From an uncultured Bdellovibrionales bacterium (GTDB lineage Bacteria > Patescibacteriota > Minisyncoccia > Moranbacterales > GWC2-37-73): DNA of 56,708 bases. Location: contig CAZAFB010000008.1 in the NCBI GenBank assembly GCA_964484505.1, positions 1 to 56,708 of the forward strand, given 5' to 3'. Below the pieces are notes generated by a model. The model worked only from the letters and a program-made list of their open reading frames with translations, searched no databases and was not told where the DNA came from. Position numbers and translations under genes: made by a program. Positions within the stretch are counted from its first letter, which is position 1, and each line of letters begins with the position of its first letter. This document shows, in pieces, positions 22,030-43,012 of the stretch.

Positions 22030-25005
22030 ATGGAGGAGAAAATTATTGTGCGTGGCGCGCGTGAGCATAACTTAAAGAACATAGACATCGAGCTTCCGCG
22101 CAACAAATTCATCGTTTTTACGGGGATTAGCGGCTCAGGCAAGAGTACGCTGGCTTTTGATACTATTTTTGCCGAAGGGCAGCGCCGATATCTGGAAAGT
22201 TTGTCGTCATATGCCAGGCAGTTTCTGGGGCAGATGGATAAGCCTGATGTTGATTATATCGAAGGACTTTCACCGGCAATTTCCATCGATCAAAAATCAA
22301 CTTCGCACAACCCGCGTTCAACTGTGGGCACAGTAACGGAAATCCATGATTATCTGCGTCTTTTGTATGCCAAAATTGGTGTGCCGCATTGTCCGGTTTG
22401 TGGCAGGGAAATAACTAAATTGTCTACGGATGAAATTGTGGACAGGATATTGGAATTGGGCAATAAATCCGGTTCGCAAAAAATTGAGTTGTTGTCTCCA
22501 ATAGTACGAGAAAGAAAAGGTGAATATTTGGCGCTTTTGGATGACATGTGGAAGCGAGGATTTTCGGAAGCGATTGTTGATGGAAAAACATATAAACTTG
22601 AAAACCATAATGAAATCAAACTTGAAAGATATAAAAAACACAGTATTGATCTTGTGGTTGATCGCTTGGAAATATCGGATGAAAATATTTCCCGCATATT
22701 TGAAGGAGTTGAAAAAACACTGAGAATGTCGCAAGGATTGGTTAAGATTCGCTGCAGCGAATCTAAATTACAAACTACAAAATCCAAATCCCAAATTTCA
22801 AATGACTCAAAAGCTAATAAGCCAGTGAAGCTAAAAGCCAGTGAAGCTTGTATTGAGCAGGTTTTTAATCAGAAATTGTCTTGTCCGGAGCATGATATTG
22901 AGTTTCCGGAGCTGGAGCCACGTTTGTTCTCGTTCAATTCGCCATTCGGGGCATGTGAGGCTTGTGAAGGTTTGGGACTGAAGAAGGAAATTGACCCGCA
23001 ATTAGTTGCGCCGGACATGAACAAGACGATTGCAGAAGGCGGTTTGGCGCCGTGGAATTTCAAAAAGAATAATTATTACGGCGGTGTTATTTTGTCGGCG
23101 GCCAGATATTTCCATGTGCCGGACAATGTACGCCTCAGGGATCTCCCAGAAAAGAAATTGAATCTGATGTTATATGGAACAGATGAAGCCGGAATAATTG
23201 CCAGCGAAAAAGATGCGGAAGAAATTCCGATTTCCGTGAGGGCAAAAACAGGATCAAGCTGGAAATTCTATATGACTTGGCGCGGCGTTGTCGGTTTTAT
23301 GCAAGAGAGATATTTCAAGACGGAATCTGATGCGGTTCGTGAAGGTATTGAAAAATACATGTCACAAAAACCCTGTTCAGTATGTAAGGGTGCAAGATAC
23401 AAAAAAGAAGTGCTGTTGGTTACAGTGGGCGGGAAGAATATCCACGAAGCTTCCGTGCTTAGCATTGCTGATTGTTTGACGTTTTTTGATAAACTTAAGC
23501 TTTCCAAGCGCGAAGAAATGATCGCAGGCAGGATTTTGAAAGAAATTAAAAGTCGTTTGGAATTTTTGAATAATGTGGGTTTGGATTATCTTACTCTACA
23601 TCGCAGCGCGTACACTCTTTCTGGCGGGGAATCGCAGCGCATTCGCTTAGCTTCGCAAGTTGGGTCTCAATTGGTCGGTGTTTTATATATTCTTGACGAA
23701 CCGTCGATCGGCTTGCATGCGCGTGACAACACTAAATTGATCGAAACGCTAAGGCATTTGCAGGAAATCGGTAACACTTTGATCGTGATTGAGCATGATG
23801 AAGAGATGATGCGCTCTGCGGATTGGCTTGTGGATATCGGTCCTGGAGCAGGGAAACACGGTGGAGAAGTAGTCGCTGCAGGAACGCCGCAGCAAGTGAT
23901 CGAGAACAAGAAATCTTTGACGGGCAAGTATTTGCGCGGAGAATTGGAAATAGAAACTCTCGTTTCGAGGCGTCCGATCAACAGAAAAAAGCATATTGTT
24001 CTGCGCAATGCTTCGCAGCACAATCTCAAAAATGTAACGGTGGAATTTCCGCTGAAAGTTTTTACGTGTGTGACTGGCGTGTCCGGCAGCGGCAAATCGA
24101 CGTTGGTTGAAGATACTTTGTATAAAGCACTGGCACATAAATTGCACCGCGCCTTGGAGGTTCCGGGAAGACACCAAGAAATTTTGGGAATCGAGAACAT
24201 CAATAAGGTGATCATGATAGACCAATCACCGATTGGCCGCACGCCGCGAAGCAATCCTGCGACATATACCGGTCTTTTCACGCATATCAGGGATTTATTC
24301 GCCCAAACTAAAGACGCAAAAATGCGTGGCTATGGTCCGGGGCGTTTCTCATTCAATGTTTCTGGCGGTCGCTGCGATCATTGTCAGGGAGAAGGATTTT
24401 TGAAAATCGAAATGCAGTTTATGCCGGACGTGTATTTGCCGTGCGATGTTTGCCATGGGAAAAGATATAACAGCGAGACGCTGCAAGTTAAATACAAAGA
24501 AAAAAGCATTGCTGATGTGTTGGCGATGACCGTTTCAGAAGCGCGGGAATTTTTTGCGAGCTACCCGAAAATACATGATATTCTGGCGGTAATTGAAGAT
24601 GTCGGGCTGGGATATATCGAACTGGGACAAAGTGCAACGACTCTTTCCGGAGGTGAAGCGCAGCGCATCAAATTGGCATCCGAGCTTGCGCGAAAAGCTA
24701 CTGGGGACACTTTGTATATTTTAGACGAGCCGACGACCGGACTTCATTTTGATGATATTAAAAAACTTTTGAATGTTTTAAATCGTTTGGTTGATGCGGG
24801 CAACACGGTGGTTGTAATCGAGCACAATATGGATGTGATCAAAACCGCTGACTGGATCATCGACATGGGACCTGAAGGCGGAGACGGTGGTGGCAGCGTG
24901 GTTGTAACCGGCACGCCGGAAGAGGTGGTGAAGTATCATAAAGAAAGTTATACGGCGAAATATTTAAAAGAGGTTCTTAACGTTCGTAACGCGAAACGTT
25001 CGTAA
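22030..25005 (+). CDS. uvrA: Excinuclease ABC subunit A (copy 1)
   Basis: [49 protein letters not shown], Zn fingers. Confidence 0.99.
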   Translation: MEEKIIVRGAREHNLKNIDIELPRNKFIVFTGISGSGKSTLAFDTIFAEGQRRYLESLSSYARQFLGQMDKPDVDYIEGLSPAISIDQKSTSHNPRSTVGTVTEIHDYLRLLYAKIGVPHCPVCGREITKLSTDEIVDRILELGNKSGSQKIELLSPIVRERKGEYLALLDDMWKRGFSEAIVDGKTYKLENHNEIKLERYKKHSIDLVVDRLEISDENISRIFEGVEKTLRMSQGLVKIRCSESKLQTTKSKSQISNDSKANKPVKLKASEACIEQVFNQKLSCPEHDIEFPELEPRLFSFNSPFGACEACEGLGLKKEIDPQLVAPDMNKTIAEGGLAPWNFKKNNYYGGVILSAARYFHVPDNVRLRDLPEKKLNLMLYGTDEAGIIASEKDAEEIPISVRAKTGSSWKFYMTWRGVVGFMQERYFKTESDAVREGIEKYMSQKPCSVCKGARYKKEVLLVTVGGKNIHEASVLSIADCLTFFDKLKLSKREEMIAGRILKEIKSRLEFLNNVGLDYLTLHRSAYTLSGGESQRIRLASQVGSQLVGVLYILDEPSIGLHARDNTKLIETLRHLQEIGNTLIVIEHDEEMMRSADWLVDIGPGAGKHGGEVVAAGTPQQVIENKKSLTGKYLRGELEIETLVSRRPINRKKHIVLRNASQHNLKNVTVEFPLKVFTCVTGVSGSGKSTLVEDTLYKALAHKLHRALEVPGRHQEILGIENINKVIMIDQSPIGRTPRSNPATYTGLFTHIRDLFAQTKDAKMRGYGPGRFSFNVSGGRCDHCQGEGFLKIEMQFMPDVYLPCDVCHGKRYNSETLQVKYKEKSIADVLAMTVSEAREFFASYPKIHDILAVIEDVGLGYIELGQSATTLSGGEAQRIKLASELARKATGDTLYILDEPTTGLHFDDIKKLLNVLNRLVDAGNTVVVIEHNMDVIKTADWIIDMGPEGGDGGGSVVVTGTPEEVVKYHKESYTAKYLKEVLNVRNAKRS
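22759..22848 (+). repeat. In-frame repeat-derived insert in uvrA
   Basis: CAAAT/CAAAA units plus a duplicated AAGCCAGTGAAGCT; encodes ESKLQTTKSKSQISNDSKANKPVKLKASEA. Confidence 0.8.
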
Positions 25006-25008
25006 CGT
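24977..25008 (+). repeat. AACGTTCGTAACG duplication forming the uvrA C-terminus
   Basis: AACGTTCGTAACG occurs twice and supplies NVRNAKRS-stop. Confidence 0.6.
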
Positions 25009-25062
25009 CGCAATACAAAATATGAATATTTTGAACTTTTGTAGTGAGCAAATAAAAAAGAT

Positions 25063-41821: not shown

Positions 41822-41858
41822 GGCGGACCTGGACAAAGGTCCGCTTTTCTCATATAAT
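41822..41858 (+). promoter_or_regulatory. Terminator hairpin overlapping the tgt promoter
   Basis: GCGGACCT/AGGTCCGC stem with T-tract; TGGACA-17-TATAAT (41830-41858). Confidence 0.6.
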
Positions 41859-41866
41859 TTGCCAAT

Positions 41867-43012
41867 ATGATGAATGTTAAATCCAAAAATGGTCAGCGTC
41901 GCGTTGGTGAATTGGCAACAATGCACGGCATCATTAAGACGCCTTTTTTTATGCCGATCGCAACCAAGGGTGCGGTGAAAAATCTTTCTCCCGAGGATTT
42001 GCGTGAGTTGGGAGCTCAGATTGTTTTGGGCAACACTTATCATCTTTGGTTACGGCCAGGCGATGAACTTATCGCTAAGGCTGGCGGATTGCATCAATTC
42101 ATGAATTGGAATGGACCTATCCTGACTGATTCGGGAGGCTTTCAGGTTTTTTCACTGGGCGCAAGAGCTGCTAAAAAATTTGGCAGCAGCGGAGTTAAAT
42201 TATCTGAAAAAGGAGTGGAATTTATCGATCCGATCGATGGTAAAAAACATTTTATGTCACCGGAAAAATCGATCGAAATCCAATTGAATCTGGGTAGCGA
42301 CATGATTATGGTGCTTGATGAATGCCCGCCATTTCCTTGTTCACATGAAGAAGCTCGCAAATCTATGGAGCTTACGCTGCGTTGGGCATCTCGCTGCAAG
42401 GAATATTTTGAAAGCCGATTCGGATCTGCAAATCAAATCGTTAAATCTCAAATCTCGCGCCCGCTTCTCTTTGGAATTGTGCAAGGAGGTGTATATGAGG
42501 ATCTTCGCAAAGAATGCGCTCGGCGTTTAATTGAGCTAGGCTTCGACGGTTATGCTATCGGTGGGGTGGCAGTAGGTGAACCGCGTAAGCACTTGTATGA
42601 AATCCTGGATTGGGTAATGCCACTTTTGCCTGAAGATAAGCCGCGTTATCTGATGGGTCTGGGTAAGCCGAATGAAATGGTCGCTGCAGTTAATTCGGGT
42701 ATCGATATGTTTGATTGTGTGATTCCAACAAGAGAAGGAAGACACGGAAGACTTTTCAAATGGAAAGATGATTGCGATGGTAATGATTTAGACCGAGAAT
42801 TTTATGAAACAATTAATATAAGCAATGAAGAATTTCGGGAAGACTTTGTGCCGATTGATGCTGATTGTAATTGTTATACTTGCAAAAATTATTCCAAGGC
42901 ATATTTGCGCCACCTTCTTAAGACAAATGAGCCGCTTTTTCTCAGGCTTTCATCAATTCATAACTTATTCTTTTATCATCAATTAATGGATCTGTTGGGC
43001 GGAAGAAAATAA
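41867..43012 (+). CDS. tgt: Queuine tRNA-ribosyltransferase
   Basis: [61 protein letters not shown]. Confidence 0.98.
42428..42456 (+). repeat. In-frame CAAAT-arm insert in tgt
   Basis: GCAAATCAAATCGTTAAATCTCAAATCTC; encodes [10 protein letters not shown] just before LLFGIVQGG. Confidence 0.6.

Follow-up and report, generated by a model that had tools for sequence, protein, structure and literature searches.

The DNA analyzed here (the window) is one entire contig, CAZAFB010000008.1, of 56,708 bases, from a small-genome groundwater bacterium of Candidatus Moraniibacteriota (Moranbacteria, candidate phyla radiation). The top relatives of its ArgRS are all Moraniibacteriota, the nearest species-level genome (L001) being 72% identical. 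The genes lie almost all on the + strand, in the order rpoB, rpoC, an ORF6N-domain gene, a LexA-like gene, ftsK, recA, efp, ssb, rpsF, uvrB, uvrA, uvrC, a hydrogenase-like fragment, a second uvrA, rsmI, argS, a glycosyltransferase gene, ileS, recO, an unknown gene, tgt, and a gene for a 2,740-amino-acid surface protein. Six of them, uvrA, uvrC, rsmI, argS, ileS, and tgt (identities from NCBIfam, all reading frames unbroken), are interrupted in frame by short repeat segments, which are the subject of this study. An initial annotation had listed these segments, and all were found where it had placed them. Its count stands for uvrA (one), rsmI (one), argS (two), and tgt (one) but not for uvrC, which has four sites rather than three, or for ileS, which has one or two, its AGCGACA array being no insertion. 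The relevant coding features are listed below, with the folding of a single strand scored as a z-score; nt, nucleotides; MITE, miniature inverted-repeat transposable element.

22757-22848, + strand: in-frame segment of uvrA, with a CGAAT/CAAAT-type array at 22760-22803 and, after it, a 16-nt direct repeat at 22811-22848
24973-25008, + strand: array at the 3′ end of uvrA, four copies of GTTCGTAAC, encoding the final 8 amino acids of UvrA and the stop codon
25203-25262, + strand: uvrC site 1, array of six 9-nt units with a GCGAAT/GCAAAT core, peptide TNTRINANDANMRMVANGNA, within the GIY-YIG domain
25268-25308, + strand: uvrC site 1, GGAG double hairpin, its mirrored 15-nt arms perfect and separated by 11 nt, z = -7.4
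25555-25602, + strand: uvrC site 2, CTAAT/CGAAT array, peptide DSNLRINANQRIANKF
25991-26026, + strand: uvrC site 3, perfect 17-bp palindrome with a 2-nt spacer, z = -7.0
26352-26411, + strand: uvrC site 4, CAAAT array of 7- to 8-nt units
31796-31831, + strand: rsmI double hairpin, GGAGGTTGAACCTCC / GGAGGTTCAACCTCC, z = -8.6
32100-32132, + strand: empty site in argS, filled in the sister strain L081 by an additional palindromic segment of 33 nt
32241-32277, + strand: argS site 1, putative decayed single arm of a TGTCAT…ATGACA element (GAGATCC…GGATGACA)
33347-33381, + strand: argS site 2, degenerate GGAG double hairpin, z = -5.0
36131-36179, + strand: MITE arm in ileS, 49 nt from the left end of a GAACCAC MITE, peptide KIRTTDSHMKTHDCTE
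37452-37481, + strand: AGCGACA array in ileS, a 7-nt unit repeated 4.3 times in tandem
37941-38055, + strand: divergent patch of 115 nt in ileS, differing from four sister strains at equal length, with a 16-nt direct repeat at 38004-38038
42416-42457, + strand: CGAAT/CAAAT array in tgt, 4 to 6 additional amino acids

The segments were compared with orthologs from about 80 related loci with conserved gene order, UvrC additionally with 120 homologs. Sister strains (L081, L085, and others), retrieved by exact-sequence look-up, are mostly about 98 to 99% identical to the window in aligned DNA outside the differing blocks, and L206 and L207/L208, with UvrC 75 to 78% identical, served as outgroups to polarize changes. 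Ortholog alignment, the check suggested in the initial annotation, separated filled from empty sites, most cleanly for rsmI and for the 33-nt segment in argS of L081. The rsmI insert is a clean net gain of 30 nt (10 amino acids, with a peptide that includes LLEVEPPSGGSTSTK); it is missing in 9/9 orthologs and in the solved RsmI of Escherichia coli, in which it aligns to a gap. The uvrA segment at 22757-22848 is likewise extra relative to orthologs and is polymorphic among strains. This segment, argS site 1 (4 additional amino acids compared to the closest genome), argS site 2, and the tgt array have 4 to 11 surplus residues each relative to the nearest or shortest orthologs. Four sites are variable in UvrC (25203-25308, 25555-25602, 25991-26026, and 26352-26411), the clade orthologs of which range from 404 to 688 amino acids, the shortest being empty at all four; the CGAAT array of site 1 is common to the window, L206, and L207, while short orthologs lack the entire segment. 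At the 3′ end of uvrA, the GTTCGTAAC array seems to have lengthened the reading frame, since both UvrA2 and the UvrA of L206 terminate earlier. The two uvrA genes of the window are both full length (22015-25005 and 27754-30549), about 46% identical, and 3 kb apart, with repeat inserts in the first only.

Not every segment is an addition. In ileS, the MITE arm forms a loop equal in length to the unrelated one of its orthologs, indicating replacement, and the AGCGACA array, which had been taken for an insertion, shows no length excess over orthologs and is instead a local tandem repeat; that it has no second copy in the window was borne out by our search. More generally, orthologs often have equally long or longer loops built of other repeats, and different families are found at the same site in different genomes, as in hot-spot loops. 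Equally long ortholog loops of unrelated sequence had been named beforehand as the observation that would speak against insertion. In that comparison rsmI stands as a clean extra, whereas the ileS MITE loop and several others match their orthologs in length.

For the GGAG hairpins, the CGAAT/CAAAT arrays, the GAACCAC MITE arm, and the TGTCAT half-element, the inserted DNA is, as initially claimed, shared with the spacers or with a second gene. The spacer copies in the window are as follows (strand given where assigned).

14137-14242: inverted array, CGAAT units followed by ATTCG/ATTAG units, z = -4.8
17279-17363: inverted TATAACGTT array, of the family found in frame in the uvrA of a sister strain
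17587-17682: inverted CGAAT/ATTAG array, intergenic
18163-18263: inverted CGAAT/ATTAG array, intergenic
18858-18960: inverted CGAAT/ATTCG array, z = -5.2; L081 has 204 nt of unrelated DNA instead
19171-19238: TGTCAT…ATGACA hairpin doublet upstream of uvrB, z = -7.1; L081 has a TATAACGTT array
30550-30675: complete GAACCAC MITE in the spacer downstream of the second uvrA, z = -7.1
31144-31262: complete GAACCAC MITE upstream of rsmI
33667-33781: complete GAACCAC MITE between argS and the glycosyltransferase gene
35290-35397: inverted array of four ACGAAT and five ATTTGT units directly before ileS, z = -4.0
38880-38894, + strand: single arm of the rsmI hairpin type, GGAGGTTCAACCTCT, intergenic

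An unsupervised scan for clusters of C[GAT]AAT, defined as four or more in 60 nt, gave eight on the + strand compared to about 0.1 expected. Of these, uvrC holds three, uvrA one, and the spacers four. The four coding clusters are all in sense orientation; the six clusters in reverse orientation all lie in spacers, as the second arm of inverted arrays. Within tgt, GCAAAT and CGGAT of the window correspond to GCGAAT and CGAAT in a sister strain, so that the CpG decay of CGAAT to CAAAT is seen directly. In the array before ileS, the left arm reads ACGAAT and the right arm ATTTGT, and full pairing is possible only in + strand RNA (through G-U) or in DNA with G-T pairs; this fits either CpG decay confined to one of the arms or selection acting on the RNA.

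The GAACCAC MITE is represented by three complete copies of 115 to 126 nt, with terminal inverted repeats of 22 to 24 nt, plus the arm in ileS, which is 84 to 86% identical to the left end of the intergenic copies over 49 nt and is also present in the sister strain L085. The 22-nt end has five matches in the window, with 0 expected. Among the 208 loci compared, about 80 of them Moranbacteria argS loci, this element was limited to the host species. When metagenomes were scanned for the MITE end, specified at 15 bases, most of the matches listed were due to chance; about 20 true arm copies were recognized by local BLAST among the matches listed, none within a long reading frame and none adjoining a transposase. 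The reading frame between two of the MITEs (30674-31171, - strand) was considered as a transposase and rejected, as it reads as a small membrane protein; a complete copy of the element flanks this gene on either side.

GGAG hairpins occur as mirrored pairs in uvrC, rsmI, and argS and as one spacer arm, with 0.01 to 0.09 expected. Fold z-scores of the hairpins are -5 to -8.6. Derivation of the GGAG hairpins from tRNA T-arms was rejected, the loops being of 3 to 5 nt rather than 7 and the window having no tRNA genes. Site 2 of argS is common to the window and to its closest genome, L001, and is therefore older; L207 has a AAAGCTCAACTTT palindrome there. Site 1 of argS, described initially as half of a REP-like (repetitive extragenic palindromic) sequence, matches the spacer doublet at 19171-19238 in only 7 + 8 terminal bases and does not fold. 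Because full TGTCAT elements of 61 to 85 nt occupy exactly this site in seven relatives (L005, L007, L014, L037, L057, L066, and L073), it is reasonable to regard it as a TGTCAT-element remnant.

Comparison among relatives indicates that elements are copied between unrelated genes. A homolog of the 17-bp uvrC palindrome of the window is present three times in L207, as 36 nt in uvrC and in argS and as 37 nt in a spacer. In L005, an 82-nt TGTCAT element is 100% identical between argS and ileS. A more ordinary explanation would be that these are hypervariable linker loops shaped by slippage, local duplication, and low-complexity drift, their likeness to spacers reflecting a shared mutational bias, with nothing moving. 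The 7- to 9-nt array units would suit it, as would the loops equal in length to those of orthologs, the restriction of the “RINAN” array to two uvrC sites, and the argS insert of L081, part of which is an inverted copy of the neighboring native sequence. The same can be said of a survey of lineage-specific inserts of at least 8 amino acids in the approximately 80 related loci (n = 112), of which only 23% showed either a tandem signal or a perfect inverted repeat (8 bp or longer) compared to 6% of controls; repeats explain a real part of loop variation, though not the whole. Shared bias does not readily yield near-identical 36-nt palindromes in two genes and a spacer of one genome, identical 82-nt elements in argS and ileS, or a 49-nt MITE arm inside ileS. 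The AACGTT array in the uvrA of the sister strain also resembles spacer arrays, and the AGCGACA array shows no copy-number slippage between sister strains. We consider this explanation unlikely.

Constraints on the coding copies point to their being read through by the ribosome. Full TGTCAT elements in coding DNA all have lengths of 1 mod 3 (6/6) and use a single shared reading frame, whereas the spacer copies measure 81, 71, and 68 nt. Length differences between the window and L081 are +33, +21, and -33 nt in genes and -95, -33, and +62 nt in spacers, those in genes being all multiples of 3 and those in spacers not, in agreement with the in-frame lengths initially described. These constraints of length, stop codons, frame, and orientation are what translation predicts, while removal of the segments from RNA or protein as mini-introns or inteins would need none of them. 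At 10 to 47 amino acids the segments are also far below intein size, and neither an intron nor any other RNA family of Rfam was matched in the window. Candidate phyla radiation bacteria do carry intervening sequences in their rRNA genes, and repeats can mislead assemblers; assembly chimeras had been named as a possibility in the initial annotation. Each allele, though, recurs in several independent assemblies (NCBI, JGI, ENA, and Logan), which excludes assembly error. Intervening sequences or chimeras are accordingly an extremely unlikely source of the segments.

In a 19.4-kb global alignment of the window with L081, every large structural difference (block lengths differing by more than about 15 nt) coincided with a repeat element, as listed here.

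18857-18966, spacer: inverted CGAAT array in the window, unrelated DNA in L081
19016-19040, spacer: 25 nt in the window, 58 nt in L081
19150-19285, spacer: TGTCAT doublet in the window, TATAACGTT array in L081
22737-22854, uvrA: CAAAT array in the window, AACGTT array in L081, of a family present in the window's own spacers
25194-25326, uvrC: CGAAT array and GGAG double hairpin in the window, TGTCAT element in L081
32100-32132, argS: empty in the window, 33 additional nt in L081

The net difference is 33 nt at the uvrA site, where L206 and L207 have other arrays again, and 21 nt at uvrC site 1, where the swap recurs among protein clusters whose members are otherwise identical. In the place of the GGAG hairpin of uvrC site 1, L206 and L207 have a different perfect palindrome, GGGACTAAGTCCCC-AATT-GGGGACTTAGTCCC. 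By contrast with these whole-block replacements, in which the strain differences consist, the AGCGACA array and the arrays of uvrC sites 2 and 4 are identical among sister strains.

Some of this turnover need not involve insertion at all. Mismatches cluster in the 12 to 20 nt beside the swapped blocks of uvrC site 1 and uvrA, the flank of L081 matching L206, and both uvrC site-1 alleles have counterparts in relatives at 60 to 78% identity. With diverged flanks and old counterparts, these two swaps read as short-patch imports of old alleles, and on the alignments they are best read as allele exchange rather than new insertion. Extended to the whole data set, the elements would be old, their apparent activity being short-patch recombination of existing loop alleles, with insertion rare or extinct in this species. 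Sister strains do show recombination tracts, a mosaic argS, and the 115-nt patch of ileS, an equal-length exchange. The 33-nt argS insert is harder to accommodate, as it is found in L081 only and is absent from the window, L085, and the outgroups L207 and L001, and hence is derived in L081. Nor would extinct insertion sit well with a GAACCAC MITE that is species-specific among the sampled relatives, or with the identical copies across genes of relatives, which show that copying happens within the clade. We regard an old and now merely recombining set of alleles as quite possible, though on balance not probable.

The mosaic argS mentioned above is that of L085 (6830-7837 of that locus, corresponding to 32386-33291 of the window), in which about 900 nt of the catalytic core are strongly divergent and both ends are 98% identical to the window.

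Several elements are better conserved than their surroundings. The array of uvrC site 2 is 93% identical to that of L206 at the nucleotide level compared to 77% for the rest of the gene, its third positions are 84% identical compared to 55% for the gene, and it matches the site-1 array of L206 in 41 of 42 positions. The palindrome of L206 and L207 is 36/36 identical between the two. Conservation in excess of the neutral sites of the host gene suggests recent copying, conversion from other copies, or, less likely, a structural function. If the hairpins or peptides were functional and kept by selection (for translation pacing, transcript stability, protein binding, or as useful surface loops), this excess over host third codon positions would be expected, and so would the persistence of perfect palindromes in which both arms change together, as between the window and L207 at uvrC site 3 and between the window and L206/L207 at site 1. 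Perfect arms are, however, equally explained by recent copying or gene conversion. Moreover, the sites are empty in many orthologs, unrelated elements interchange at the same site, and strains about 98 to 99% identical swap elements without other change. A selected function is therefore in our view very unlikely. For UvrC, where one stretch of insert peptide reads GESNSQMQK, an AlphaFold model from a 32-sequence alignment gave a predicted local distance difference test score (pLDDT) below 50 for the inserts, but the model was poor overall (mean pLDDT, 61), so that it hints only weakly at disorder.

Overall, the data point to a process in which spacer repeats of several families land in genes, are filtered for frame, are translated in tolerant loops of essential enzymes, and are then turned over; we hold this to be probable. 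The repeats would have their home in the spacers, where the arrays stand as inverted pairs, and comprise four family types: mirrored double hairpins of 36 to 41 nt, TGTCAT…ATGACA hairpin doublets of 60 to 85 nt, the GAACCAC-ended MITE of about 120 nt, and arrays of 7- to 11-nt units with a fixed 5- to 6-nt core (CGAAT, its CpG-decayed form CAAAT, or AACGTT). Copies or fragments would land in coding DNA as well, where selection would retain those that are multiples of 3, free of stop codons, hydrophilic as peptides, and placed in tolerant loops. Survivors would accumulate at, and be translated through, a few permissive loops of essential enzymes. With only frame-keeping copies in tolerant loops surviving, the same few loops would be struck repeatedly. 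A repeat, once in place, would be a weak spot, liable to be overwritten by other family members through ectopic copying, exchanged between strains by short-patch homologous recombination, altered by local duplication, and worn down by point mutation. Retention and accumulation are visible in the sequences as a pattern, and this later turnover as an outcome. The alignments themselves display the filter on frame, length, and orientation, and they likewise show that sites are reused, that elements are copied from gene to gene, and that strains turn them over; the landing of copies in genes is what we infer from them. The active, multi-family addition of loops initially proposed thus holds insofar as several families are in frame and recent, but many events replace elements in loops that were already variable.

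A number of observations weigh against this reading. Neither the window nor about 100 kb of close relatives contained a transposase, REP-associated tyrosine transposase (RAYT), nuclease, or other mobilizer candidate; that the window itself has no transposase had been correctly noted at the outset, and a mobilizing enzyme would act in trans. The flanks of the three MITE copies share no clear duplicated bases, so that no target-site duplication can be defined for them, and neither the window, the sister contigs, nor the fetched metagenome loci contained an autonomous partner with the same ends and a transposase. The 17-bp uvrC palindrome has no second copy within the window, and the GGAG hairpins have just one spacer arm there. 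The confinement of the “RINAN” array to uvrC is as compatible with local duplication or conversion as with mobility, and slippage or local duplication may be enough for short-unit arrays to grow, with no mobilizer involved. Many variable loops of relatives are not assignable to repeats, the uvrC site-1 and uvrA swaps look like allele exchange, and translation of the inserts is inferred. A dedicated trans-acting system that recognizes hairpin-forming repeats and copies or exchanges them as small cassettes at defined loops, in spacers and genes alike, appears to us distinctly unlikely. Were it real, core enzymes of these reduced genomes would have their surface loops remodeled at a much higher rate than their remaining parts, and a GTCAT-hairpin element found across phyla and viral contigs would be one of its substrates.

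This cosmopolitan element was also brought to light by the analysis. A 25-nt pattern for the GTCAT-hairpin GTCATYCYGRACTTGWTYCRGRATC matched more than 120 IMG/VR viral contigs of widely differing GC content, including high-GC ones. Within viral contigs (L209 to L288 and further), GTCATYCYGRACTTGWTYCRGRATC frequently has an inverted partner 30 to 60 nt away and lies beside other variants of the type GTCAT plus hairpin. A generic scan of 1.2 Mb of loci for the GTCAT head plus a hairpin of whatever sequence gave no excess over control heads, and family-specific patterns were used instead. The translated peptide of the TGTCAT element had only three weak matches in the protein database, and no name or description of the GTCAT-hairpin was found in the literature.

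The closest parallel is provided by the Rickettsia palindromic elements (RPEs), which are about 100 to 150 bp long and encode a conserved peptide of 30 to 50 amino acids (Ogata et al. 2000, as summarized in PMC10969869). The Moranbacteria elements resemble RPEs in being palindromic repeats present both in spacers and in frame in unrelated housekeeping genes, where they add an extra peptide, and in comprising several families with no encoded mobilizer. They differ in that the modules are of 30 to 85 nt (30 to 41 nt for double hairpins and 61 to 85 nt for TGTCAT elements), are mixed with short-unit arrays and a MITE fragment, and belong to a Moranbacterium; uvrC site 1 reaches about 120 nt only as a composite of two unrelated parts. 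Furthermore, one loop is here reused by different families, and strains about 98 to 99% identical differ at the sites. The precedent invoked initially is therefore apt for the behavior, the elements working like RPEs, but by size and host they are not members of the RPE family.

Optional G+C-rich palindromic clusters and AAT expansions also occur in frame in the yeast mitochondrial gene var1, where they are strain polymorphic and probably spread by gene conversion, not through a transposase of their own. As in that case, tiny hairpin modules lie here in frame in an essential gene and vary among strains. Double-hairpin elements are known from fungal mitochondria as well, and from those of sponges (PMC2800124). 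The mitochondrial elements belong to organelle genomes and are unrelated in sequence, whereas the present case concerns a free-living or episymbiotic bacterium and extends over many genes and at least four families.

MITEs that make in-frame gene fusions, among them ERIC, BOX, and Anabaena MITEs, are a further parallel (Delihas, cited in PMC10969869 and PMC3184786). With its terminal inverted repeats, length of about 120 nt, lack of coding capacity, multiple copies, and part in frame in ileS, the GAACCAC element is a MITE in all respects apart from target duplication and partner element. It differs from those cases in that just a 49-nt arm lies in a gene and in that neither a target duplication nor a partner insertion sequence came to light; classical MITE ends are missing from the other families. 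REP sequences have a GT[AG]G head, are associated with RAYT (Y1/HUH) transposases, are extragenic by definition, and form doublets in inverted orientation. The TGTCAT elements are similar in having a conserved short head and a variable imperfect palindrome, often as inverted pairs, but the head is GTCAT rather than GT[AG]G, the element is cosmopolitan rather than species-specific, and it also lies inside genes; neither the 56.7-kb contig nor about 100 kb from relatives yielded a RAYT gene. Unlike coding microsatellites of the contingency type, the AGCGACA and uvrC site 2 and 4 arrays keep a constant unit copy number between sisters, and unlike inteins or self-splicing introns, the segments are of 10 to 47 amino acids, leave the frames intact, and gave no Rfam match at the gathering threshold.

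The genomes of candidate phyla radiation bacteria are tiny, and odd additional segments are a known trait of their proteins and rRNAs. For at least some such segments, the contig discloses an origin, spacer repeats fixed in frame, through a process fast enough to distinguish strains about 98 to 99% identical in the surrounding DNA. It thereby offers a concrete way for essential enzymes to acquire and exchange surface loops. Repeats in frame have precedents; the surprising part is the reuse of loops by several families and the swapping between strains in essential genes, and we found no description of such inserts in candidate phyla radiation bacteria in the literature searched, nor any paper matching the element sequences. 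In practice, the inserts are usable as strain-typing markers. They also call for care in annotation and alignment, since domain models score faintly across them and intergenic copies may be miscalled as small proteins.

Some further features of the window deserve mention. The ORF6N-domain gene (9957-10562) lies between two 34-nt AACGTT arrays (9920-9953 and 10540-10573; region 9918-10591) that are 82% identical and belong to the array family of the spacer at 17279-17363, found in frame in uvrA of a sister strain; the ORF6N protein could be what binds such arrays, or gene and arrays could together form a small mobile cassette. No Rfam family reached its gathering threshold anywhere in the window, but a T-box-like leader with a clear AAUUAAGGUGGUACCACG box lies upstream of ileS (34975-35264; 24.9 bits compared to a gathering score of 93, E = 0.0014). 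L085 has a PDDEXK_3 gene and TACAAA arrays in this spacer instead of the leader. The ileS product itself is 974 amino acids long compared to 1,250 in L001, and the two are only 41 to 51% identical although the neighboring genes are 72 to 91% identical. Finally, the predicted 2,740-amino-acid surface protein (43616-51838) contains an internal duplication with an offset of 1,140 nt, in which a 300-nt pair (44057-44356 and 45197-45496) is 98% identical.

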